Assembly: GCA_021824345.1 (NCBI GenBank) | Contig: JAKAKW010000002.1 | Span: forward strand, 86,552 to 150,551 | Origin: a bacterium | Lineage (GTDB): Bacteria; Patescibacteriota; Minisyncoccia; Phycocordibacterales; UBA9973 | Direction of reading: 5' to 3' | Length of the DNA: 64,000 bases | In this document: positions 393 through 62,219 of the stretch, in pieces | Layout of the letters: every line of letters starts with the position of its first letter | How positions within the stretch are numbered: the stretch's first letter is position 1 | Program-made: the position numbers and the translations under genes | The notes under the pieces: generated by a model | What the model saw: only the letters and a program-made list of their open reading frames with translations | The model's database searches: none | What the model was told of the DNA's origin: nothing

Positions 393-2156
393 ATGCAAAA
401 CGAAACCAAAAATTGCCAGAATTGCAAAAATGATTTCATAATTGAGCCGAATGATTTCGGGTTTTACGAGAAGATTAAAGTTCCTCCGCCGACTTGGTGC
501 CCGGAGTGTCGGATGAAGCGCAGAATCATGTGGAGAAACGAAAAGACAATGCATCGCAACAAATGCGCCGCTACCGGAAAAACAGTTTTTTCTTCAATAA
601 GCCCTGAGTCTCCATACAAGATATATGACCGAGATTATTGGTGGAGCGACAAATGGGACCCTTTGGAATACGGCAGGGAAGTTGATTTTTCCAGGCCTTT
701 TCTGGAACAACTCAATGAGCTGATGCATGACGTTCCATGGTATAGCCGGTCGGTAATCAATAATGTAAAAAGCGATTATTGTATGAACGCCAGCTATTTA
801 AAGGATTGCTATCTTCTTTTTCACAGTTCAAAAAACGAGTCTTGCTATTACGGAGTGGGAATAAGCTTATCCAAAGACTGTTTTGACAATTCCTTTCTTG
901 AAAAATGCGAACTTTGCCATCAGTGCTTTTTTTGCACTAACTGCTATCAAGCATATTATTCCGTAGATTGTGAAAATTCCCAAGAATTGTTTCTTTGCCG
1001 AGACTGTATAAACTGCCATGACTGCTTCGGGTGTGCTGGTCTGAGAAATAAGCAATATCATATTTTCAATAAGCCGTTTTCTAAAGATGAGTACGAGGAA
1101 GAAAGGAAAAGGCTGTTAGGATCTTATAAAAGTTTTTTTAGCGTGCGCGAAAAAGCAATTGAAACGTGGCTCAAAGCGCCGGTCAAGTACGCGCACGAGA
1201 CACACAACCAAAATATTTCCGGAGATTATATAAATAATTCAAAAAACCTTTCAAAGTCGTATATTATGATCGACTCGGAAGACTGCAAGTATTGCCAAAA
1301 TGTTTTTCAGTCGCCCGGAGCGAAAAACTCATACGATTACAGTTTTTTCGGCCAGGGTGCTGAGCTGATTTACGAAGCGTGTTCCACCGGCATTCAGGTC
1401 TCCGAGATAAAATTTTCTTCTTTTATATATCCTGACGCCCAAAGGATAACATATTCGGTAATGTGCCCTTCGTCGAGAGATCTTTTCGGCTGTGTTAGTT
1501 TACGAAGCAAGCAGTACTGCATTTTAAATCGCCAATATTCCAAGGAAGAATATCTTGCGCTTGTTCCAAAAGTGATTGAGCACATGAATAATATGCCCTA
1601 CACAGACAAAAAAGGCAGGATATACCGTTATGGCGAATTCTTTCCGCCGGAGTTCTGTCCATTCGGATACAATGAAACGGTAGCCCAAGAGTATTTTCCC
1701 AAAACCAAGAAAGAGGCCGAAGAGGGAGGATGGCCTTGGATTGAACCAGACATGAAAGAATATGAGCCCGATCTTTCCTGGAAAAATATTCCCGACAAGG
1801 TTTCAGATAGCGGAATAGACATAACAGAAAAAGTAATTCTTTGCCAGTCTTGGGACGAGGAAGGTTCGGAAAAAGCTTTGGAACGAAATTGTTCTAAAGC
1901 ATTTAGGATAGTTTCGCGAGAATTTGAATTTTACAAAAAATACGATCTTCCCTTGCCGAGAAAATGTTTTTTCTGCAGACACTATGACAGGGGTAAGTTC
2001 CGAAATCCTCTGAAGCTCTGGCATAGACAATGTATGTGCACTCAAACCAGCCACGGGCACGCAGGCGATTGTAAAAACGAATTTGAAACAAGCTACGCCC
2101 CGGACCGTCCGGAAATCGTATATTGCGAATCCTGTTATCAGAAAGAAGTGTATTAA
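393..2156 (+). CDS. Large Cys-rich protein (~588 aa) with N- and C-terminal zinc-ribbon modules and two internal Cys-rich repeat modules. Function unknown.
   Basis: ATG at 393 avoids overlap with the upstream paralog. N-term is CQNCKNDFIIEPNDFGFYEKIKVPPPTWCPECRMKRR. Two internal modules each end in GCxxLRxKQYxIxNxxxSKxEY. C-term is ...RPEIVYCESCYQKEVY, identical in style to neighbours. About 10% Cys. Confidence 0.6.
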   Translation: MQNETKNCQNCKNDFIIEPNDFGFYEKIKVPPPTWCPECRMKRRIMWRNEKTMHRNKCAATGKTVFSSISPESPYKIYDRDYWWSDKWDPLEYGREVDFSRPFLEQLNELMHDVPWYSRSVINNVKSDYCMNASYLKDCYLLFHSSKNESCYYGVGISLSKDCFDNSFLEKCELCHQCFFCTNCYQAYYSVDCENSQELFLCRDCINCHDCFGCAGLRNKQYHIFNKPFSKDEYEEERKRLLGSYKSFFSVREKAIETWLKAPVKYAHETHNQNISGDYINNSKNLSKSYIMIDSEDCKYCQNVFQSPGAKNSYDYSFFGQGAELIYEACSTGIQVSEIKFSSFIYPDAQRITYSVMCPSSRDLFGCVSLRSKQYCILNRQYSKEEYLALVPKVIEHMNNMPYTDKKGRIYRYGEFFPPEFCPFGYNETVAQEYFPKTKKEAEEGGWPWIEPDMKEYEPDLSWKNIPDKVSDSGIDITEKVILCQSWDEEGSEKALERNCSKAFRIVSREFEFYKKYDLPLPRKCFFCRHYDRGKFRNPLKLWHRQCMCTQTSHGHAGDCKNEFETSYAPDRPEIVYCESCYQKEVY

Positions 2157-2225
2157 GATGAGCAAGCTAGGGCAGAGGGTAAACATCCGCCCTCTCCACC
2201 CTAGAGAAAATAACCTTGCAGGAGT

Positions 2226-2255
2226 TGCCTTTTTCTTCGAAACTATGGTATAATA
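2226..2255 (+). promoter_or_regulatory. Sigma70-like promoter (TTGCCT -35, 18-bp spacer, extended -10 TGGTATAAT) upstream of the third paralog
   Basis: Direct sequence reading. The -10 TATAAT is at 2250..2255 with TGG immediately upstream. Confidence 0.45.
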
Positions 2256-2282
2256 TAGCGTTAATAAGGGTATTGGCGCGCC

Positions 2283-4010
2283 ATGAATACTCAAGGAAAA
2301 AATTCCTCCCGAGGCGGGCCGCAAGTCTGCCGCAACTGCCGAAGAGAGTTCGTAATAGAACCTCCTGACTTGAAATTTTACCAAAATATAAAAGTTCCTC
2401 CGCCGACCTGGTGTCCGGAGTGCCGGATGGCCAGGCGTTTTTCATTTCAAAATACCTGGAGCTTATACTGGCGTAATTGCGACAAATGCGGAAAGAAAGC
2501 GCTGTCAACTTATCCGCCGGAAAAGAAAATAATCGCTTACTGTTCCGAGTGCTGGTGGGCGGACGATTGGGACGGCACGGAATACGGCATGGATTACGAT
2601 CCTAAAAAAACGTTTTTCGCGCAACTGACAGAATTGAAAGAGCGCACTCCTTTTATGATGTTGCAAAATGATCATGTCACTATCAAAAATTCCGAATATT
2701 CTTCCTATATTGGCTGGAGCCGCGATTGTTACTTGGTATTTTGGGCCGATTACTGCGACAACGTGTGTTATTCTTCCATTTTAAATGGCTTGCGCTTCAG
2801 TTCCGATTGCCTGCGGGGATTTGATTCAGAGCTCTGCTATGAATCCATCGGCTTTTCCGGCAATTACCGCACTTTCTTTTCCGACGAATGCGACAATTGC
2901 GTGGACGTATGGTTTTCCCGCAATTGTTATGGATGTACCAACTGTATTGCCTGTGTCAATCTGCGCGGGGCCTCCTATTGCATCTTCAATAAGAAATATT
3001 CAAAAAATGAATACGTGGAGGAGGTAAGGAAATTGGGATTAAACTCATGGAAAGCCTTGCGCGAATTGGAGAATAGAGCGCACGCCTTCTGGTTGGAAAG
3101 ACCGTACAGAGAATACAACGGGAACAGCTTGAATACTAATGTTTCGGGAGATTACGTGTACGAATCCAGAAATGCGAAGGATATGTACATAGTAAACGGC
3201 GCGGAAAATTGCCGATGGTGCCAGTTCATCACCGTGAAGCCGGCCAAAGATTGCCGCGACTACTCCGGATGGGGGAATAACACTTCTCTCATATATGAAA
3301 GCATTAATGTGGGAGAGGACAGTTACGGCGTACGTTTTTCCGGCATTTGCTGGGCGGACTGCTTAAACCTTGATTACTGCTACTTTTGCATATCCGCGAA
3401 GAACGCTTTCGGATGCGTGAATCTGAAAAGGAAAAATTACTGCATCCTAAACAAACAGTATCCGAAGGAGGAATTTTTCAAACTGCGCGAAAAAATAATT
3501 GAGGACATGAAGAAAAATCCATATACGGACAATATCGGACGCGAATTTCGATATGGAGAATTCTTTCCGCCGGAATTCAGTCCATATCCGTACAACAAAT
3601 CCAATGCCATGCGCTTTCTGCCAAAAACAAAGAGCCAGGCGCTACGGGAAGGGTACTCCTGGGAAGAAGAGGAAATACATAAATATGACACCACTATCGG
3701 ATCGGCGGATCTGCCGGACAGCTTGGAGAAAACGGATGAATCGGTGCTGGAAGAGGTGATAAAATGTCCGAATTGTCCGCGAGGGTACAAGATCGCCAAA
3801 CTCGAATTAGACCTATTGCGCAAGATGGGCCTGCCTCTTCCGCACGAATGCCCTCGTTGCCGGGAAGAGAAGCGCTTCGCCCGGCTGAACAAGCCGAAAT
3901 TCTTTGAGCGCAAATGCGCAAAGTGCGGGGAAAAGATCAGCACCGCCTTTTCTCCCGACCGTCCGGAGATCGTGTACTGCGAAAAGTGCTACCAAGCCGA
4001 ATTTCTTTAG
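2283..4010 (+). CDS. Third paralog of the Cys-rich zinc-ribbon repeat protein family (575 aa)
   Basis: Same N-terminal motif (CRNCRREFVIEPPDLKFYQNIKVPPPTWCPECRMARR), internal duplicated Cys-rich modules, and C-terminal CPNCPRGYKIAKLELDLLRKMGLPLPHECPRCR ... DRPEIVYCEKCYQAEFL. Own promoter TTGCCT-18-TGGTATAAT at about 2226..2255. Confidence 0.6.
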   Translation: MNTQGKNSSRGGPQVCRNCRREFVIEPPDLKFYQNIKVPPPTWCPECRMARRFSFQNTWSLYWRNCDKCGKKALSTYPPEKKIIAYCSECWWADDWDGTEYGMDYDPKKTFFAQLTELKERTPFMMLQNDHVTIKNSEYSSYIGWSRDCYLVFWADYCDNVCYSSILNGLRFSSDCLRGFDSELCYESIGFSGNYRTFFSDECDNCVDVWFSRNCYGCTNCIACVNLRGASYCIFNKKYSKNEYVEEVRKLGLNSWKALRELENRAHAFWLERPYREYNGNSLNTNVSGDYVYESRNAKDMYIVNGAENCRWCQFITVKPAKDCRDYSGWGNNTSLIYESINVGEDSYGVRFSGICWADCLNLDYCYFCISAKNAFGCVNLKRKNYCILNKQYPKEEFFKLREKIIEDMKKNPYTDNIGREFRYGEFFPPEFSPYPYNKSNAMRFLPKTKSQALREGYSWEEEEIHKYDTTIGSADLPDSLEKTDESVLEEVIKCPNCPRGYKIAKLELDLLRKMGLPLPHECPRCREEKRFARLNKPKFFERKCAKCGEKISTAFSPDRPEIVYCEKCYQAEFL

Positions 4011-19941: not shown

Positions 19942-19975
19942 AAAGAAGGAAGCTCTGCTTCCTTCTTTCTTTTTA
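19942..19975 (+). terminator. Intrinsic terminator after rplK (12-bp stem aaagaaggaagc/gcttccttcttt + T-run)
   Basis: Perfect inverted repeat followed by ctttttaaaaag. Confidence 0.65.
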
Positions 19976-19980
19976 AAAAG

Positions 19981-20697
19981 ATGAAAAAATATTTTACCAA
20001 GCGAAATGTTTTGTTTGTCATAATCTTCGCGGTTCTCGGGTTTCTCGCTCTGCAGATTCCGTTTACGGAGCTGGCCGGCTCCGGAGCGAAGTTTACCATT
20101 TACGACGCTTTTGCTCCGATTGCCGGATCTTTCATAGGGGCGGTGCCGGGGCTTATCGCCGTGCTTCTGATGGAACTGGCGAATTTCTTCATGCACGGGG
20201 CGGTAGTTTCGGATGCGGGAACCATTATCCGTTTCCTTCCCATGCTTTTTGCCGTAGCCTATTTCGCCCGCAAAGGAAAATTTAATATCATCATTCCGAT
20301 CATCGCCATAATCGCCTGGAACCTTAACCCGGTCGGCCGAAGCGTTTGGTACTATTCCATGTTTTGGACCATTCCGATTTTTGCATATTTCCTGAGAGAC
20401 AAGTTTCTTCTGGCCCGGTCTTTCGGAGCCACTTTCACCGCTCACGCCGTAGGCGGGGCTCTCTGGATATGGTTCTTCAATCTGCCGGCGGCTGTTTGGA
20501 TTGCTCTCATTCCGGTGACGGCCATAGAGCGCACCATTTTCGCTCTCGGCATATCGGCATCTTTCGTGGTGGTGGGCAATGCTCTTGCGTACCTGGAAAA
20601 GAAGCATATCGTGAATCTCGGATTTCTGGCAGAAAAGAAATATATCCTGCCGTCTCTGCGCTATGAATCAAACGCGCAAAACACAAATAACGCCTAA
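19981..20697 (+). CDS. Hypothetical polytopic membrane protein (possibly ECF-transporter S-component-like)
   Basis: Six predicted TM helices across 238 aa. Functional call is speculative. Confidence 0.35.
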   Translation: MKKYFTKRNVLFVIIFAVLGFLALQIPFTELAGSGAKFTIYDAFAPIAGSFIGAVPGLIAVLLMELANFFMHGAVVSDAGTIIRFLPMLFAVAYFARKGKFNIIIPIIAIIAWNLNPVGRSVWYYSMFWTIPIFAYFLRDKFLLARSFGATFTAHAVGGALWIWFFNLPAAVWIALIPVTAIERTIFALGISASFVVVGNALAYLEKKHIVNLGFLAEKKYILPSLRYESNAQNTNNA

Positions 20698-20710
20698 ATT
20701 CACGGCTTAC

Positions 20711-21208
20711 ATGGCCGTGAGTATTGACGGCGTTTTGGCCGAAAACGGGAAAAGCGGGAACCGTTGGACCAGCCGGGAAGACCAGGCTTTTTTTCAAAAA
20801 GCGCTTTCCAAACACGACGGTTTTGCGACCGGATACAATACATTTAAAATCGCCGAAAAGAAGGTGAAGAAAAGGAGGAACGTATTGGTCTTCACTTCCA
20901 AGAAAAGAAATAAAGGAGTTCCGGAATCGGTGACTTTTGCCGACCCGAAGCGTTTCAGTCCGCGCAAATTCTTTACCGGCCGGGGATGCAAAAATGTGGC
21001 CGTGCTCGGAGGGCCCGGGGTGTACGCGTATTTTTTGGAACATGGTCTTTTGGATGAATTGTTCATTACCGTCGAGCCCTATGTATTCACCAAGGGGGTG
21101 CCGATGTTTTTCGGCTCGAAATTCAAAGCGCATTCATTTGTTTTGAAATCCGCCAGACGGTTGAATAAAAACGGGACTTTGCTTTTAAAGTACAAACATG
21201 CAAGTTAA
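20711..21208 (+). CDS. Dihydrofolate reductase-like protein (RibD C-terminal/DHFR family)
   Basis: MAVSIDGVLA...NVLVFTS...VAVLGGPGVYAYFLEHGLLDELFITVEPYVFTKGVPMF matches the DHFR/RibD_C fold signature. Start moved to the internal ATG to avoid overlap. Confidence 0.55.
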   Translation: MAVSIDGVLAENGKSGNRWTSREDQAFFQKALSKHDGFATGYNTFKIAEKKVKKRRNVLVFTSKKRNKGVPESVTFADPKRFSPRKFFTGRGCKNVAVLGGPGVYAYFLEHGLLDELFITVEPYVFTKGVPMFFGSKFKAHSFVLKSARRLNKNGTLLLKYKHAS

Positions 21209-21902
21209 AGCCATTAAAACCGCGGTTTTTCGGGAAAATGAGGATTTGATCCGATTTATTTTGCGCTATGTGAAAAAGCTTCCGGAAAAATCCATTTTGG
21301 TTGTGACGTCCAAAATAATCGCTTTGTCCGAAGGCCGGACAGTGGAGCTTAAAGATGAAAAACAAAAGGCCAGGATAATCAAAAAAGAAAGCGAATTTGC
21401 AATAAAAACAAAGAGGGCCTGGCTGACAATCAAAGACGGGGCGGTTATGGCCTCCGCCGGCGTGGATGAATCCAACGCGGCTGGCAAATTGATTCTTCTG
21501 CCGAGGAACAGCTTTGTTTCCGCGGAAATGATCCGCAACGAGCTCATGAAAAAATTCAAAGTGCAAAAGCTCGGAGTGCTTGTGACCGACAGCCGGACTT
21601 TTCCATTGCGCGCCGGCATTGTGGGCATGGCCCTGGGCTACGCGGGGTTCAAAGGAATCCGCGATTACCGCGGAACTGGGGACATCTTCGGCAGGAAATT
21701 AAAAATGTCCAGAACCAACGTTGCCGATTCTCTTGCCGCTGCCGCAGTGCTTTGCATGGGAGAGGGGAAAGAGAGGCAGCCGCTTGCGATACTAGAAGAC
21801 GCTCCGGCGGTTTTCTCTCAAACAATAAATCCGAAAGAAATACTCATAAATCCGAAGATAGATTTGTATTTGCCATTTTTTAGGCGTATATTAAGGAAAT
21901 GA
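21198..21902 (+). CDS. CofE-like F420-0:gamma-glutamyl ligase-family protein
   Basis: VVTSKIIALSEGR...ASAGVDESNA...LLP...VLVTDSRTFPLRAGIVGMALGYAGF is typical of the CofE/F420_ligase family. The organism is unlikely to make F420. Confidence 0.5.
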   Translation: MQVKAIKTAVFRENEDLIRFILRYVKKLPEKSILVVTSKIIALSEGRTVELKDEKQKARIIKKESEFAIKTKRAWLTIKDGAVMASAGVDESNAAGKLILLPRNSFVSAEMIRNELMKKFKVQKLGVLVTDSRTFPLRAGIVGMALGYAGFKGIRDYRGTGDIFGRKLKMSRTNVADSLAAAAVLCMGEGKERQPLAILEDAPAVFSQTINPKEILINPKIDLYLPFFRRILRK

Positions 21903-22381
21903 AAAATGCTAGGCCGTCTTGGGACGAATATTTCTTGGGCATGGCGGATTATGTCGGCAGCCGGGGCACCTGCGATCGCGGGCGGAACGGATGCGTGATC
22001 GTTCGCGACAAAAGAGTGATTTCCACCGGATATGTTGGTTCTCCTCCCGGACTGCCGCATTGCGATGACGTCGGGCATGAAATGCATAAAGTGACAAACG
22101 AGGACGGCACCGATTCCATGCATTGCGTTCGCACGGCGCACGCGGAAATGAACGCCATTGCCCAGGCTGCGCGGTTCGGAGTTTCCGTCGGCGGGGGAAC
22201 CTTATATACCAAGATGACGCCCTGTTACACTTGCGCCAAAGCGATTATCACCGCCGGCATCAAGCGGGTGGTAAGCGAAAAAGATTATCATGCGAGTAAA
22301 AGAAGCAAGGAAATTTTAAAGGAAGCCGGAGTAGAGCTGGACATTATCAATAACGAAGTCGAGAAATACGACAATCAATAA
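21899..22381 (+). CDS. dCMP deaminase (cytidine/deoxycytidylate deaminase zinc-binding family)
   Basis: HAEMNAI and PCYTCAKAI zinc-ligand motifs, in a ComEB/dCMP deaminase-like arrangement. Confidence 0.75.
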   Translation: MKNARPSWDEYFLGMADYVGSRGTCDRGRNGCVIVRDKRVISTGYVGSPPGLPHCDDVGHEMHKVTNEDGTDSMHCVRTAHAEMNAIAQAARFGVSVGGGTLYTKMTPCYTCAKAIITAGIKRVVSEKDYHASKRSKEILKEAGVELDIINNEVEKYDNQ

Positions 22382-22382
22382 C

Positions 22383-22712
22383 ATGGTTGACCTGAAAAAA
22401 ATGCAGAAGGAAGCGATGGAAAACAAGGTGAAGCATGGCTTCAATACCACGGACATCGCCCTGGAATTCTGCCATGCCCACGAAGAGCTTTCAGAGGCTT
22501 TCCATAAGTTCAACAAAAACGAGGAAGGAGTGGCGGAAGAGCTGGCGGACGTAATGATTTTCCTCCTCGGACTGTGCGAAATACTCGGTTTTGATCTTGA
22601 GAAGGAGGTGGTGGGCAAGATGGAAAAGAACAAAAACAGAGAATACGAAAAGAAGAAATCTCCCGATGGTAAAGATGTGTTTATCCGGATCAGGACGCCG
22701 GAAGATCCTTAG
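22383..22712 (+). CDS. MazG-like nucleotide pyrophosphohydrolase
   Basis: EELSEAF...EELADVMIFLLGLCEILGFDLE MazG/NTP-PPase helix signature. Confidence 0.65.
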   Translation: MVDLKKMQKEAMENKVKHGFNTTDIALEFCHAHEELSEAFHKFNKNEEGVAEELADVMIFLLGLCEILGFDLEKEVVGKMEKNKNREYEKKKSPDGKDVFIRIRTPEDP

Positions 22713-22749
22713 CACGAAAAAAGGAAGCCTGGCTTCCTTTTTTCGTGCT
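22711..22749. terminator. Bidirectional terminator (19-bp perfect inverted repeat agcacgaaaaaaggaagcc/ggcttccttttttcgtgct) between convergent MazG and folA
   Basis: Perfect palindrome with internal A-run/T-run. The folA stop codon overlaps the stem end. Confidence 0.65.
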
Positions 22750-23230
22750 AGCTCCTTTCATATAAGACAAAAGAATACGGATGCGGATTTTCTTCGTCGG
22801 CCGGAAAATCTTCCCGGCTTTTTTCTTTCCATTCGGGGCCGATTTCCGGGAAGTATGTATCCGCGTCCGGAAACTCCGCTTCCACGCGGGTGATGTAAAG
22901 CCTTTCTGCCTTCGGCAGAAACAGCCTATATATCTGTCCTCCGCCGATTACGAAGTTTTCTTCTTTTTTATCCAGTTTTTCCAGCGCTTCTTCGGGAGAG
23001 TAAACAATTTCCGTTCCCGAAGCTTCAAAATTTTTGTCGCGGGTAAGGATGATGTTCCGCCTGTTCGGCAGGGGGCGGCCGAGCGACTCATATGTCTTCT
23101 GTCCCATGATTACCGGGTGTCCGGAAGTGGTTTTGCGGAAATGCTTCATGTCCGCGCTCATATGCCAAAGCAGGGCATTATTCTTCCCAAGCTCGTTATT
23201 CTTCCCAATTGCCGCAATAATTGAAAGCAT
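22748..23230 (-). CDS. folA: Dihydrofolate reductase FolA
   Basis: MLSIIAAIGKNNELGKNNALLWH...IMGQKTYESLGRPLPNRRNIILTR...VIGGGQIY is a classic DHFR. Start at the internal ATG 5 nt after the thyA stop. Confidence 0.85.
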   Translation of the reverse strand: MLSIIAAIGKNNELGKNNALLWHMSADMKHFRKTTSGHPVIMGQKTYESLGRPLPNRRNIILTRDKNFEASGTEIVYSPEEALEKLDKKEENFVIGGGQIYRLFLPKAERLYITRVEAEFPDADTYFPEIGPEWKEKSREDFPADEENPHPYSFVLYERS

Positions 23231-23234
23231 GATT

Positions 23235-24116
23235 TTATACCGCAATCTCAAACGGAATGCGGGGATAGCTTTCATAGCCGATCACTTTTGAATCTTCCGC
23301 ATGCCAGTCAAAGATTGATTTCCAGTTTTCAGTTTCAAGCTTTGGCAGGGGATATTTCTTCGGGTCTCGGGAGAGCTGTTCCTTGGCTCCTTCCATGTGG
23401 TTTTCATAAATGTGCACATCTCCAAGAAACCCGACGAGTTTTCCTTCCTTGAATCCTGATTCTTTGGCGAGAAGGTGCAGAAGAAGGGCATAGCTTGCTA
23501 TGTTAAAAGGCAGCCCAAGCATGGTATCCACCGAGCGCTGGTTCCACATAAGGTTCAGCTTGTCGCCTATGGTGGTTACCTGGAAAGAATAGTGGCAGGG
23601 CGGCAGAGCCATCTCGCCAAATTGCTGGGGATTCCAGGCGGAAACTATCATCCTCCGATCTCGCGGATTGGTCTTCAAGGTTTCCACAATTTTTTTCAAC
23701 TGATCCACTCCCTTACCCGTGTAATCTGTATCGTAGCTTTCATACGGAGCGTTGAAATGCCTCCACTGGAATCCGTAAATGGGCCCCAGGTCGCGTTCTT
23801 CCATCATTTTTTTCTTGGACGCTTCGTCGTGCCCGTAGGGCGCTTTCTGCGGTTTGGCCCATTCATCCCAGATGTGATTATTTCGATCACGGAGCCAGTT
23901 CTTGTCCGTGACTCCATTTATAAAAAATTCAAGTTCTGAAGCAATCAGCCGAAACGGCATTTTTTTTGTAGTCAGGAGGGGGTACCCATCCGACATGTCA
24001 TGTTCAAATATCGCCCCGGCCATGGTGTATGCTCGTTCTCCGGTTCTTGTTTCCACTAATTCGCCTTTGTTCAAAACCGTCTTTACTATATCCAAATATG
24101 CTTTCATGTCCTCCAT
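23235..24116 (-). CDS. thyA: Thymidylate synthase ThyA
   Basis: RTGERAYTMAGAIFEHDMSDGYPLLTTKK, the LPPCH equivalent, and a C-terminal ThyA core. Confidence 0.9.
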   Translation of the reverse strand: MEDMKAYLDIVKTVLNKGELVETRTGERAYTMAGAIFEHDMSDGYPLLTTKKMPFRLIASELEFFINGVTDKNWLRDRNNHIWDEWAKPQKAPYGHDEASKKKMMEERDLGPIYGFQWRHFNAPYESYDTDYTGKGVDQLKKIVETLKTNPRDRRMIVSAWNPQQFGEMALPPCHYSFQVTTIGDKLNLMWNQRSVDTMLGLPFNIASYALLLHLLAKESGFKEGKLVGFLGDVHIYENHMEGAKEQLSRDPKKYPLPKLETENWKSIFDWHAEDSKVIGYESYPRIPFEIAV

Positions 24117-40116: not shown

Positions 40117-40542
40117 GTGTATACAGCGACCATGGATCCCAAACCATCTTTTGATCAAGAAATAAGCGAAGCTGTACAGCAGTTTGAGACAGAATCAACG
40201 GAAAAACCGGCGCCTTTCGGCAATGAAGGAGCAGAGGCTTCTTCATTGTACCCGCCTCATGCCTCTGTTTCTCAGTCTTCCATTGAAAAGCCTTCGGGCA
40301 TGATCGGGATGGTGATGAAACTCTCCAGCGGAACGGTGAAAACAAGAAAGCAGGCGAATGCGGCGATGTTGATATTCGTAGTTTTGTCGGCGGTTATAAC
40401 TTTGTTTTTACTAACCGGAGGCTTTGCGGGCAAGGCTCCAAACACGACGCCGATATATCAAGAAGATTTGACCCCTACAGCCAGGGCAACTATACCTGGA
40501 AGCGTGCTCAAAACAATACCTTACAAAAATGGGAATAAATGA
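40117..40542 (+). CDS. Hypothetical single-pass membrane protein (acidic/Ser-rich N-domain) preceding a pilin gene
   Basis: One TM helix (AAMLIFVVLSAVITLFLL). No known domain. Overlaps the pilin ORF by 14 nt. Confidence 0.35.
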   Translation: MYTATMDPKPSFDQEISEAVQQFETESTEKPAPFGNEGAEASSLYPPHASVSQSSIEKPSGMIGMVMKLSSGTVKTRKQANAAMLIFVVLSAVITLFLLTGGFAGKAPNTTPIYQEDLTPTARATIPGSVLKTIPYKNGNK

Positions 40543-41026
40543 TTCACAACTGGAAAGAGGTTTCACTCTAATAGAGCTTTTGGTTGTTATAGCAATAATA
40601 GGCGTTTTGGCTTCCGTGGTTCTTGCGAGTCTTACTTCTGCGAGGGAAAAGGCAAAAATAGCAAAGGCTCAATCTGAAATGCGGCAAGTAGTGCAAGCCA
40701 TTATCATAGCCCAAGGGGAACAAGGCAAGCCTCTTCTCGTATTTGCGCCGAATTCAAACTGCGGCCAATGTTATTGCGCTGACATAAATTCCACTTCGTG
40801 TAAAAATAATTGGGTGACCGCCTTGCAACAAATTCAGGACGCAACCAACGGACTGGTTACGGGGTTGACGGCAATGAAGTATGATCCATGGGGACATCCC
40901 TATCTTATTGACGCAAACCAATATGAAGGCGGGTCCAGCGCTTGTTTGAACGCCGATGGTTTTGGGGTATATGGCCAAGGCATACCCAATGCCCCTTCAA
41001 TTCCGCTCAGCCCGGTGTGTCCTTAA
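40529..41026 (+). CDS. Type IV pilin / pseudopilin with class-III (prepilin) signal peptide
   Basis: Leader MGINDSQLERG then FTLIELLVVIAIIGVLASVV (G-1, F+1, E+5 N-methylation motif). The C-terminal domain has Cys pairs. Confidence 0.75.
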   Translation: MGINDSQLERGFTLIELLVVIAIIGVLASVVLASLTSAREKAKIAKAQSEMRQVVQAIIIAQGEQGKPLLVFAPNSNCGQCYCADINSTSCKNNWVTALQQIQDATNGLVTGLTAMKYDPWGHPYLIDANQYEGGSSACLNADGFGVYGQGIPNAPSIPLSPVCP

Positions 41027-58832: not shown

Positions 58833-58948
58833 AGCCGGAGAAGATATAAATTTATGCGATGGTTTGGCCGAGCTTCCAGCTCCGCAGGAGCAAAATTTTG
58901 GCGAGGAGAGCCGAGGACCTCGCGGAAATTTATATCTTTTCCGGCTTC
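58833..58948. repeat. Intergenic element upstream of ftsH bounded by ~21-bp inverted repeats (agccggagaagatataaattt / aaatttatatcttttccggct, 1 mismatch) with GC-rich interior (ggccgagc motif)
   Basis: Direct inspection. Same architecture as the other IR-flanked elements. Confidence 0.45.
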
Positions 58949-58988
58949 TTTAATTTCATTCGGGGCGTTTTCATGCTATACTCGCAGA

Positions 58989-61900
58989 ATGGATTTCAAT
59001 CTTAGAAACAGCCAGGAGCCGAAAATGAAAGGAAAAAAACCTCCGGAAAGAGGTCCTGGTTTTGCTGGCAGCATCGCCTCGGTGATTCTTATCTTTATGA
59101 TAATCACCGCCATATATCTTTTGATTTCGGACGCTTCCCAGCCGGTTCCCGCCATTCCCATTTCCCAGGTTGCGGAAGATGTTTCTTCCGGCGCGGTGCA
59201 AAAGATAGAAGTGCAGGGGAACGATCTTACGGTCACTTACAAGGACAAGGAAGTGAAAAAATCAAAGAAAGAGACGGAAACTTCCTTAACCGACACTCTG
59301 TCAAACTACGGAGTGAGCAAGCAGGTGCTTGACGCCACCGAGATAGACATTCAAGAACCGGACGGATTCGGGTACTGGGCGATAAACATTCTGCCGTATC
59401 TTCTGCCCATTATCTTCATCGTGATTTTCTTCTGGTACATTTCCCGGCAGGTTAAAGGGGCCGGCATGCAGGCGTTCACCTTCGGCCAGTCCAAGGCGCG
59501 CATTACCGATCCTTCCGACAAGAACAATCGCATCACTTTCAAAGACGTGGCCGGATGCAAAGAAGCGAAAGAAGAACTGAAGGAAATTGTGGATTTTTTG
59601 AAAAACCCCAAAAAGTTCCTGGATATCGGAGCGCGCATACCCAAAGGAGTGATTCTTACGGGAGCGCCCGGAACCGGCAAGTGCGTCAATGGCGATACAT
59701 TGATACAAACATCCAAAGGCCTTGTTGCAATAGAAGATGTGCCGAAATACTTTTCAGTAAATTCAGATAATACAGTGGAAGGGTTAAGAGTGATAACTAT
59801 TGACCCGAAGAACGGGACTTTAAAAACCACGGATGCTTCGCATTGGTATTCTTTAGGGGAGCAAGAAACTGTTGCCATAAAGACGGAATCGGGAATGTTT
59901 TTGGAAGGTACGCCGGAACACCCTATCATCGTAGTTGATAAAGATACAGGCCATTTTGTTTTCAAAAAATTAGCTGATATAACAACCGACGACTGGTGCG
60001 TGGTGGGCTCCCGGACGGAGGTATTCGGAACGCATACAAAAATTCCAGGCCCGGAAACCGCTTATATACTTGGTGTTTTGACGGGTGACGGATGCATGAC
60101 CATTAAAGGCAGAATAGTTCTTTCCACTATTGATAAAGAGATTTTGAGCCGGGTGCAAGATAATGTTAAGAGATTGTTCGGCGAGGAGTTTTCAAAAATT
60201 TCCGCCCATAAATGCGATTATCAGCTTTCAAATAGCAAGGCAAAGAATGCGTTATTGTCTTTTGGACTTTCAGAAACATACGCGAAAAATAAGAGGATTC
60301 TTGAGTGGGTTCGTTTTGCTCCCAAAGAGCACATAAGCAATTTCCTGCAAGGATTGTTTGATACCGATGGCACGGTTGAAAAGAGCGGAAGCGTAAGTTT
60401 GTCCAGCGCCAGCGAACACTTAATAAGAGAAGTGCAATTTATGCTTCTTAATCTCGGCATAGTGACCAGAAGGTATGAGCGCCAGAAGAAATACAACAAT
60501 CAACTCCAATACTACATTGTTATTTATGGAGATTTTGTGCAGTCTTTTCAGAACCAAATAGGGTTTTCAGTTGTCAGGAAAAAAGAAAGATTGGAAAAAA
60601 TTTGCCTCAAACAGCGAAATACAAATGTAAATGTCATACCTTCGCAAGGCAAGTCTATTCACATGGTCTGGAAACAGGCGGTAGCCACCTCAGGAATGGT
60701 TTTTAATAGGGAATTTTATAATCAATCTATTTATAAAAATTTCAAACGATACGTTTCGGGAGAACGGATGCCTTCCCTTAAAGGGATGTCAATATTTCTC
60801 GAAGGAACATCTCGCATTTCACCGTATATAAACGAAATGCCCGAGGTGGCGCATTTGAAAAGCTTGTCTTCCGGTAATTTTTTCTTTAGTAAAATTGATT
60901 CCATTAGCCGAGGCAGGAACAAAGTATATGATCTTACTGTACCGGTAACCCATAATTTTTTGGCCAATGGATTTTTTAATCATAACACCATGCTGGCCAG
61001 GGCCATCGCGGGCGAAGCGAGCGTGCCCTTCTACCATCTTTCCGGTTCGGAATTCGTGGAAATGTTCGTGGGCGTGGGCGCCAGCCGGGTGCGGGATCTT
61101 TTCCGGGTGGCCAAGAAATCCGCTCCGGCCATAATATTCATTGATGAAATTGACGCCATCGGCAGAACCCGCGGAGGGGGATTCGGAGGAAGCAATGACG
61201 AACGCGAGCAGACCTTGAACCAAATTCTGGTGGAAATGGACGGCTTCGAGCCGAACGAGAAGCTGATCGTGATTGCGGCCACCAACCGGCCGGATGTTCT
61301 TGACCCTGCCTTAATACGTCCCGGACGCTTTGACCGCAAAGTGGTGCTGGATCTTCCGGATCGCAACGACCGCGAAGAAATTCTGAAAATTCACGCCCAG
61401 AAAAAGCCCTTGGCGGAAGATGTGAATCTGCATCTTGTCGCCGAGCGTACCCCGGGCTTTTCCGGCGCCGATCTTTACTCTTTAATGAATGAAGGCGCCA
61501 TTCTGGCCGCCCGGGAAAACCGCAAAAAAGTGTTCCAATTTGACCTGATCCGGGCGATTGAAAAAGTAATGCTGGGTCCGGAACGCAAAAGCCACCTGCT
61601 TTCCAAGAAAGAAAAAGAAATTACCGCCTATCATGAAGCCGGGCACGCTATCGTGGCCTCGGTATTGCCTCACGCGGATCCGGTGCACAAAGTTTCCATA
61701 ATCGCCCGCGGACGCGCCGGGGGATATACGCTTAAGCTTCCTCTGGAAGAACGTCGATTGCAATCTCGGAAAGAATTCATTGACGATATCGCCATGTCGC
61801 TCGGAGGATATGCCGCGGAAAAAATGATGTTTGGGGATATTACTACCGGACCGTCCAGCGATCTGCAGATGGCCACGAACCTAGCCCGGGCCATGGTCAC

Positions 61901-62219
61901 TCGCTTCGGCATGTCCGACAGCATCGGCCCGGTCACCTGGGCGGAAGGAGAAGGAAAGCCGGGCTGGGGAGAACTTCGGGAAGATTCCCGTTCGGAAAGC
62001 GTGGCCGCGAAGATTGACGATGAAGTTTCCAGAATCGTGAATGATGGCATAAAAACGGCGCAAAAAGTGCTGAAGGATCACAAGAAAGCCTTCACTGCCA
62101 TTGCCAAGAAGCTTATCGAAGTGGAAACTTTGGAACGGGACGAATATGAAAAAATTCTCATCGCCCACGGCATAGAGCTGAAAAAGAAGGACGAGCCGGA
62201 GGTGGTCATAGAAGGCTAA
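58989..62219 (+). CDS. ftsH: ATP-dependent zinc metalloprotease FtsH, interrupted in-frame by a 435-aa intein within the Walker A motif
   Basis: Two TM helices and periplasmic domain. [12 protein letters not shown] then intein then [18 protein letters not shown]+ second region of homology. HEAGHAIV zinc motif. Start at ATG 58989 (the ORF track begins upstream in the leader). Confidence 0.85.
59682..60986 (+). mobile_element. Intein with LAGLIDADG homing-endonuclease domain inserted between Lys and Thr of the FtsH P-loop (GPPGTGK | T)
   Basis: Begins CVNGDTLI (block A, Cys1). TPEH (block B). Two LAGLIDADG motifs ([24 protein letters not shown]). Ends [21 protein letters not shown] followed by +1 Thr. 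Insert is AT-richer than flanking ftsH. Confidence 0.8.

Follow-up and report, generated by a model that had tools for sequence, protein, structure and literature searches.

A probable thymidylate-supply locus of a Patescibacteria bacterium, with a CofE-family ligase as putative folylpolyglutamate synthase

The window considered here, a stretch of 64,000 nucleotides from contig JAKAKW010000002.1 (assembly GCA_021824345.1), carries a compact operon on its plus strand, which converges with a thyA-folA pair on the minus strand (Table 1). Its host is a bacterium of the Patescibacteria, or candidate phyla radiation (CPR), near the Nomurabacteria; the close homologues are all from Patescibacteria, mostly from metagenome-assembled genomes of Nomurabacteria/Paceibacteria. 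We consider it likely that the locus supplies this genome-reduced bacterium with thymidylate, by joining a folate salvage arm and an arm that produces deoxyuridine monophosphate (dUMP) to ThyA and FolA. Central to this reading is the third gene of the operon, which carries the domain name 'F420 ligase' and most likely encodes a FolC2-type ligase that adds glutamates to folate. Gene identities were taken from the list of open reading frames and from Pfam and NCBIfam matches, together with independent gene calls on identical public contigs.

Organization of the locus and its nucleotide enzymes

The first-pass annotation of this DNA had described four co-directional genes converging on thyA-folA. 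All six genes that it named are present and in the right orientation, but the plus-strand genes number five, since a gene for a membrane protein has to be added at their head. From their packing, these five genes appear to form a single operon-like unit: the reductase and ligase genes overlap by 11 nt, the ligase and deoxycytidine monophosphate (dCMP) deaminase genes overlap by 4 nt, and only 1 nt separates the deaminase stop from the MazG-like gene. The whole block is flanked by nusG-rplK and by a DEAD-box helicase gene; rpsL-rpsG-fusA and the large operon for ribosomal proteins are close by.

Two start codons deserve comment. For the second reductase, the Pfam match begins at residue 11 and the KFTAY segment (residues 12-16) aligns with the first beta-strand of the Thermotoga maritima dihydrofolate reductase (DHFR); as the codons for this strand lie upstream of the methionine at 20711, the start at 20663 is the more probable of the two. 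In the case of folA, the DHFR_1 match begins at residue 16 of the frame listed in Table 1, and translation probably starts at 23230, 4 nt past the thyA stop, giving a FolA of 160 residues.

The two transcription units converge on a palindrome whose 20-nt arms (22710-22729 and 22731-22750) are 100% complementary and separated by a 1-nt spacer, and which is bounded at its two ends by TAG triplets, the stop codons of the MazG-like gene and folA. Its predicted folding energy is -33.9 kcal/mol (z = -8.1 relative to shuffled sequences, with 0 of 200 shuffles as stable). The core, GGAAGCC-N-GGCTTCC, has A6 on one side and T6 on the other, and on either strand a GC stem is thus followed by a U-run. 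Both units thus appear to end at one shared, bidirectional hairpin resembling an intrinsic terminator; the perfect bidirectional terminator reported earlier is therefore borne out in its perfection and its terminator features, while its length of 19 bp has to be corrected to arms of 20 nt. A second hairpin, of 12 bp and located 12 nt 5' of the ATG of the membrane protein gene, has the GGAAGC core in common with the downstream palindrome, and could serve, on the upstream side of the unit, as a terminator or as an attenuator of read-through into the operon.

Table 1. Features of the locus and other features of the window. The last column gives the number of conserved loci, among the 80 described in the next section, in which the gene was found; these counts are lower bounds.
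Feature	Position	Strand	Description	Loci (of 80)
Membrane protein, 238 aa	19981-20697	+	first operon gene; no family match	
Second reductase (RibD_C-like)	20663-21208 (alternative start 20711)	+	Pfam RibD_C 56.6 bits (cut-off 24.1)	20
CofE-like ligase	21198-21902	+	Pfam F420_ligase 136.5 bits	
dCMP deaminase	21899-22381	+	Pfam dCMP_cyt_deam_1 84 bits	46
MazG-like pyrophosphatase	22383-22712	+	Pfam MazG-like 33.2 bits, MazG 25.4 bits	48
FolA	22748-23275	-	Pfam DHFR_1 200.5 bits	52
ThyA	23235-24116	-	Pfam Thymidylat_synt 313.7 bits	47
Shared palindrome, 41 nt	22710-22750	both	perfect; bidirectional, intrinsic-terminator-like hairpin	
Upstream hairpin + CTTTTT	19942-19968	+	between rplK stop and membrane-protein start	
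YvcK, 331 aa	55580-56575	-	Pfam 'CofD' (PF01933)	
Tandem paralogue array, last member(s)	~393-4010 and upstream of the window	+	no Pfam domain	
DHO_dh-domain protein, 354 aa	30997-32061	+	see text	
Two small genes	~40117-41026	+	between rplE and rpsH	
FtsH protease with intein	58854-62219	+	see text	

The translation of the dCMP deaminase gene holds the HAE and PCxxC zinc motifs, scores 128.7 bits with a ComEB-type model versus 38.7 bits with RibD, and has its best solved relative in Streptococcus mutans (2HVV, E 1e-30; further relatives are 1VQ2, 2W4L, and 4P9C); on its sequence, the product is an enzyme that converts dCMP to dUMP. On the opposite strand, ThyA passes TIGR03284 with 281.5 bits (cut-off 108), and both ThyA and FolA are canonical by their family matches. 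Complementation has shown folA genes of CPR bacteria to be functional, and folA, glyA, or folD is present in most CPR (PMC11974145). As for the MazG-like protein, it resembles the pyrophosphatase of PDB entry 4QGP (E 2.7e-5) and dCTP pyrophosphatase 1 (E 0.014), and this all-alpha nucleoside triphosphate pyrophosphohydrolase would act on dCTP and/or dUTP, giving the monophosphate.

Conservation of the neighborhood in the CPR

The neighborhood was examined in one genome per species. A relative was present in 281 genomes, and the best 80 loci were analyzed by mapping the proteins of the window onto them and clustering all of their genes. Nearly all of these loci carry CPR labels, with a few under other or generic ones, and because many contigs end within the block, the gene counts obtained are minimal values. 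The cassette proposed from the window sequence indeed recurs with thyA-folA in dozens of CPR species across many genera, and the gene arrangement is thus not due to chance. Its commonest order is NusG, L11, transporter, optionally the second reductase, ligase, dCMP deaminase, and MazG, followed on the opposite strand by FolA and ThyA, and then by the DEAD-box helicase.

The slot directly upstream of the ligase is occupied by a Vut_1 (PF02592) transporter in 52 of the 80 loci and by the membrane protein family of the window in seven. Where no transporter is found, the same slot holds genes of folate biosynthesis: a CT610-type 4-aminobenzoate (pABA) synthase in five loci, with FolP beside it in four of these five (dihydropteroate synthase model, 294.5 bits, above cut-off), and FolB in two of the 80. 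This pABA synthase matches PDB 9PJ4 with an E-value of 3.7e-33 and CT610 itself (1RCW) with 6e-30, and PqqC with only 8e-6.

On the thymidylate side, ThyX, which is known to generate no dihydrofolate, takes the place of ThyA and FolA in four of the 80 loci (L032, L043, L053, and L068). The replacing ThyX-domain protein (e.g., L032:8731-10080) has 449 residues, twice the usual length of ThyX; its ThyX scores are weak, at 61 bits with Pfam Thy1 and, below the cut-off, 21.9 bits with TIGR02170. In functional terms the three substitutions make sense: ThyX stands in for the ThyA-FolA pair, the membrane protein family of the window for Vut_1, and genes of folate biosynthesis for a transporter. The ThyA proteins of the conserved slot (L005-L082) are themselves of three types, with 30-32%, 38-47%, and 65-84% identity to ThyA of the window, which suggests repeated in-place gene replacement. 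Likewise, seven loci (e.g., L013:7210-7761) have a P-loop (AAA_17) gene resembling nucleoside/nucleotide kinases at the MazG position after the dCMP deaminase, possibly providing an alternative route to dCMP. Finally, an ATP-grasp amino-acid ligase is encoded directly 3' of the CofE-like gene in 18 loci (e.g., L017:5852-6856) and is missing from the window; its closest resemblance is to the ATP-grasp domain found in cyanophycin synthetase and GshAB, with weaker matches to RimK, MptN, and CofF, which hints at a further modification of the glutamate tail.

Among 1.84 billion cluster representatives, 2,175 relatives of the ligase were found at E<=1e-3, and the best 150 of these include three fusion proteins. 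A 463-residue protein in which Vut_1 is fused to the ligase (P0285, L087:6001-7392) is found on five contigs from several samples. In another fusion, of 453 residues (P0385, L090:619-1980), the ligase is joined to a RibD_C/DHFR domain (DHFR_1, 30 bits, above cut-off), and a gene for serine hydroxymethyltransferase (SHMT) lies two genes downstream. The third is a fusion of the ligase with a cytidylyltransferase-like domain (P0282). The C-terminus of E. coli YhhQ, of the Vut_1 family, is cytoplasmic (PMC5372724); fusion to the Vut_1 C-terminus would accordingly place the ligase at the cytoplasmic face of the membrane.

Could the adjacency nonetheless be an accident of genome compaction, with unrelated housekeeping genes gathered between nusG-rplK and the DEAD-box helicase gene? 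The block does lie among ribosomal and translation genes, and in distant, non-syntenic CPR loci the other neighbors of the ligase are unrelated (CorA, DsbA/VKOR, permeases). In addition, CPR genomes are compact, which makes adjacency alone weaker evidence than it would be in larger genomes. However, start and stop codons overlap within the operon, the block recurs over many genera, the replacements described above make functional sense, and two independent fusion proteins tie the ligase to its partners, all of which leaves an accident very unlikely. What the distant loci indicate is rather that only the transporter-ligase pair is universal, since Vut_1 and the ligase stay together in lineages where all other neighbors differ.

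Family placement of the CofE-like ligase

The placement of the ligase is based on profile scores. Among the NCBIfam models, the top match is TIGR04132, 'putative folate metabolism gamma-glutamate ligase', with 203.8 bits over residues 1-231 of 234, below its cut-off of 350. The three CofE models score lower and are likewise below their cut-offs: TIGR01916 with 140 bits (cut-off 180.65), NF009809 with 132.9 (274), and NF009810 with 120 (304). TIGR04132 is also the best model for 22 of 22 aligned CPR homologues and for 11 more distant cluster representatives, which score 159-261 bits. In comparison, the Pfam F420_ligase match spans residues 6-199 only, and the alignment to solved CofE likewise ends near residue 199 (E 7e-22 to 2G9I). 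No relatives were found on viral contigs in IMG/VR.

A precedent for a folate substrate exists in Chlamydia, where CT611 (FolC2), a COG1478/CofE homologue encoded beside CT610 in the chlamydial folate operon, rescues an E. coli folC mutant (PMC1971073; PMC4161248). The window ligase shares with CT611 and TIGR04132 the CofE-family fold, the full-length match to the same best model, and the linkage to folA; furthermore, the CPR ligases that directly adjoin the CT610-type pABA synthase and FolP reproduce the chlamydial folKP-folA-folC2-ct610 linkage. Several differences should nevertheless be kept in mind. The CPR ligases form a separate and much larger clade (the 2,175 representatives mentioned above), and the one in the window lies in a salvage setting, with a transporter and without folP, folK, or folB, in contrast to the de novo synthesis of Chlamydia; it is, moreover, co-operonic with dCMP deaminase and MazG.

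The proposal that the ligase acts on folate would make it a functional counterpart of canonical FolC, the Mur-ligase-family enzyme with dihydrofolate synthase and folylpolyglutamate synthase activities, which uses ATP: the reaction and the role in folate retention would be the same, but the fold is unrelated. CofE, by contrast, uses GTP (PMC1971073). With CofE and FbiB's N-terminal domain (A. fulgidus 2PHN; 7ULD), the ligase shares a homologous domain in which the DxSN, TD(S/T), and MGEG motifs align, whereas its 35 C-terminal residues are unrelated, the contacts to the F420 chromophore are only partly kept, and the gene has no cof context. From the structure papers, we take these three motifs to be the metal/GTP site of CofE.

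These differences bear directly on the reading suggested by the gene's label, namely that the ligase is a genuine CofE extending the glutamate tail of F420, a cofactor that the cell would either synthesize or acquire from its neighbors. The Pfam domain is called F420_ligase, and most public homologues are named 'coenzyme F420-0:L-glutamate ligase', although at least one pipeline uses 'dihydrofolate synthase / folylpolyglutamate synthase'. The aromatic residue that stacks on F420 in A. fulgidus CofE, F92, is also retained, as the invariant W75 of the ligase. Of the other chromophore contacts, G153-R154-C155 of CofE aligns with T134-F135-P136, and the region of R234 is unaligned. The score of 140 bits with the closest CofE model is not only under its cut-off but also lower than that with the folate-type model, and in 80 species the ligase has genes for folate and thymidylate metabolism as neighbors and in no case F420 genes.

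The window itself holds one apparent F420 gene, a Pfam 'CofD' match. The protein in question is, however, YvcK, with 266.4 bits against TIGR01826 (cut-off 196) and 22.5 bits against the true CofD model (cut-off 257), and is as such an easy false positive in searches for F420 genes. No cofC, cofG, or cofH appears in the Pfam lists, which span the window from ~400 to 64000, nor does any other cof gene. An F420 pathway, which by the first-pass annotation would have told against its reading, is thus not seen within the window. Furthermore, the CPR, like the host group of CT611, are absent from the F420 producers listed in a review of the cofactor's distribution (PMC8498797). Altogether, a genuine CofE is a most improbable identity for the ligase.

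A FolC2-type identity fits these observations better, and the first-pass suggestion of a CofE homologue with a folate-like substrate is thus supported by the top score of TIGR04132, the folate synteny, the fusions, and the CT611 precedent; nucleotide gamma-glutamylation, which had been raised as an alternative, found no support. Some caution is in order here. The 203.8 bits of the ligase lie below the curated TIGR04132 cut-off of 350, which makes it a divergent member or part of a sister group and no certified member of that family. Functional replacement of FolC has been demonstrated for Chlamydia CT611 only (PMC1971073). Finally, the lack of a FolC-type Mur ligase (COG0285) in the Pfam lists and the F420-gene negatives both apply to the 64-kb window alone. 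With these points weighed, we infer that the ligase is a folylpolyglutamate synthase, possibly also a dihydrofolate synthase, and that it would represent a divergent enzyme of the FolC2 kind, from a clade commonly mis-annotated as CofE.

Folate import, reduction and glutamylation

The second reductase was first described as a RibD_C/DHFR-like protein, unusual beside a bona fide folA. The DHFR part of this description holds, in that its best solved relative is the DHFR of T. maritima (1CZ3/1D1G, E 2.3e-24), a characterized enzyme with which it shares 38% identity along its entire length (E 2e-29). The RibD part does not extend to function: despite the RibD_C match (DHFR_1, at 21.8 bits, is just below its cut-off of 25), scores with RibD and pyrimidine-reductase models reach at most 32 bits, where the cut-offs are 150-274. 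Given these values and the mere 22% identity to FolA of the window, the protein is a distantly related second DHFR, of the Thermotoga type, rather than a reductase of the riboflavin pathway. The alignment with the T. maritima enzyme shows that the W-x-S-x-E-D motif retains its acidic residue and that an arginine occupies the position of E. coli R57, both residues with known roles in DHFRs; on the other hand, the GRPLP segment is replaced and the equivalent of R44 is a tyrosine. Again unlike T. maritima DHFR, the second reductase coexists with a canonical FolA and is operonic with a transporter and the ligase. Both reductases are found together in at least 16 loci, indicating that the second one supplements FolA instead of replacing it. 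A riboflavin or deazaflavin pathway, to which the combination of RibD_C, deaminase, and CofE might have pointed, was also considered and is ruled out by the dCMP-type deaminase and the T. maritima-type DHFR.

The membrane protein at the head of the operon matched no Pfam or NCBIfam model at E<=0.01, S-component models included, and no PDB sequence. It has about 1,200 homologues; among the 120 listed, none has a Pfam domain and the sole name given is 'hypothetical'. Its AlphaFold model is of medium confidence (predicted local distance difference test, pLDDT, 72; predicted template modeling score, pTM, 0.67), and the top 15 PDB structures retrieved with it by Foldseek are all S-components of energy-coupling factor (ECF) transporters (RibU, BioY, FolT, ThiT, and PanT), with a best E-value of 4.9e-3 and a best target-normalized template modeling score of 0.68. 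The protein may thus be a putative uptake protein for folate or another vitamin, predicted to share the six-helix fold of S-components such as RibU, FolT, and BioY. With Vut_1/YhhQ, it shares the gene position that this transporter holds in related genomes. It belongs to neither family at the sequence level, and the window has no EcfA or EcfT genes. That it is a divergent Vut_1 was ruled out by profile-profile comparison (probability 0.2%), and a single functional slot consequently appears to be filled by two families without homology to each other. All seven loci that have the window-type membrane protein also have the second reductase.

Taken as parts of one pathway, these genes would supply thymidylate as follows. 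In the folate arm, the vitamin-type membrane protein would import a folate, the Thermotoga-type DHFR would reduce it, and the CofE-family ligase would add gamma-glutamates, as FolC2 of Chlamydia does in place of FolC; glutamylation would keep the cofactor in the cell and make it acceptable to folate enzymes. In lineages with FolP and the pABA synthase, the ligase may also add the first glutamate. In the dUMP arm, hydrolysis of dCTP or dUTP by the MazG-like protein would yield the monophosphate, and the dCMP deaminase would provide dUMP. ThyA would then convert dUMP to dTMP, while FolA would regenerate tetrahydrofolate from the dihydrofolate thereby produced, so that the two DHFRs would divide their labor between imported and recycled folate.

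A more specific proposal, which we advance tentatively and to which we give a little less than even weight, is that CPR bacteria possess a dedicated folate import-and-trap device, in which a folylpolyglutamate synthase of the CofE family is coupled to a vitamin-type carrier (Vut_1/COG1738 or the S-component-like family) and the folate is glutamylated on entry. In some organisms carrier and ligase would be a single polypeptide, and the Thermotoga-type DHFR would join them where folate is imported in a form that has to be reduced.

Evidence on the transporter side also speaks against a folate substrate. The window lacks Vut_1 altogether, and the S-component fold is drawn from a model of medium confidence, with Foldseek E-values of 5e-3 and weaker; genes for EcfA and EcfT were not found in the window, nor was a tetrahydrofolate riboswitch found upstream of the transporter genes of the window and of 11 loci. 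The characterized members of Vut_1/COG1738, the most constant and sometimes fused partner of the ligase, carry the queuosine precursors preQ0, preQ1, and queuine and not folate (PMC5372724), and the CPR Vut_1 passes the generic model TIGR00697, 'queuosine precursor transporter'. These last two observations raise the possibility that the ligase glutamylates another imported carboxylate, for example a 7-deazaguanine, a compound related to queuosine, or another vitamin, its proximity to thyA-folA being secondary. Yet preQ0, preQ1, and queuine would offer no carboxylate to a ligase working through an acyl-phosphate, as is established for CofE and FolC. Loci without the transporter have FolP and pABA synthase or FolB in the same slot, the ligase occurs fused to a DHFR-like domain with SHMT nearby, and no preQ1 riboswitch was found upstream of the transporter genes, either in the 11 loci or in the window. 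Another carboxylate is accordingly an unlikely substrate, and folate remains the one that we favor.

Elsewhere in the window, several features are of separate interest. The DHO_dh-domain protein scores at most 71 bits with dihydroorotate and dihydropyrimidine dehydrogenase models, whose cut-offs are at least 269; it is a divergent flavoenzyme, and de novo synthesis of pyrimidines is probably missing from this genome. An intein containing a LAGLIDADG homing-endonuclease domain (Pfam) splits the FtsH protease gene, two small genes, one with a prepilin N-methylation motif, are inserted in the ribosomal-protein operon, and the array that enters the window at its 5' end comprises at least five paralogues of about 580 residues.

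The core idea, that a CofE homologue can take over the role of FolC, is already known from the FolC2 case. No paper was found on this enzyme, on its pairing with a transporter or on the fusions in CPR, nor on folC or CofE in these bacteria, and the CPR folate survey covers folA, glyA, and folD, but never folC or such a transporter candidate (PMC11974145). The label 'coenzyme F420-0:L-glutamate ligase' is widespread and can mislead ecological readings; in a 2026 groundwater virome paper, for instance, a 'cofE' gene, which may or may not belong to this clade, was read as influencing methane flux (PMC12960796). Were the clade recognized as being of the FolC2 type, the gap at polyglutamylation in CPR folate metabolism would be closed, and the transporter-ligase pairing and fusion are concrete candidates for the acquisition of folate by obligate symbionts. 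Should the coupling of import and glutamylation prove true, it would give COG1738 a new substrate class and define a new family of folate transporters, and the ligase would provide much of the CPR with its missing FolC.

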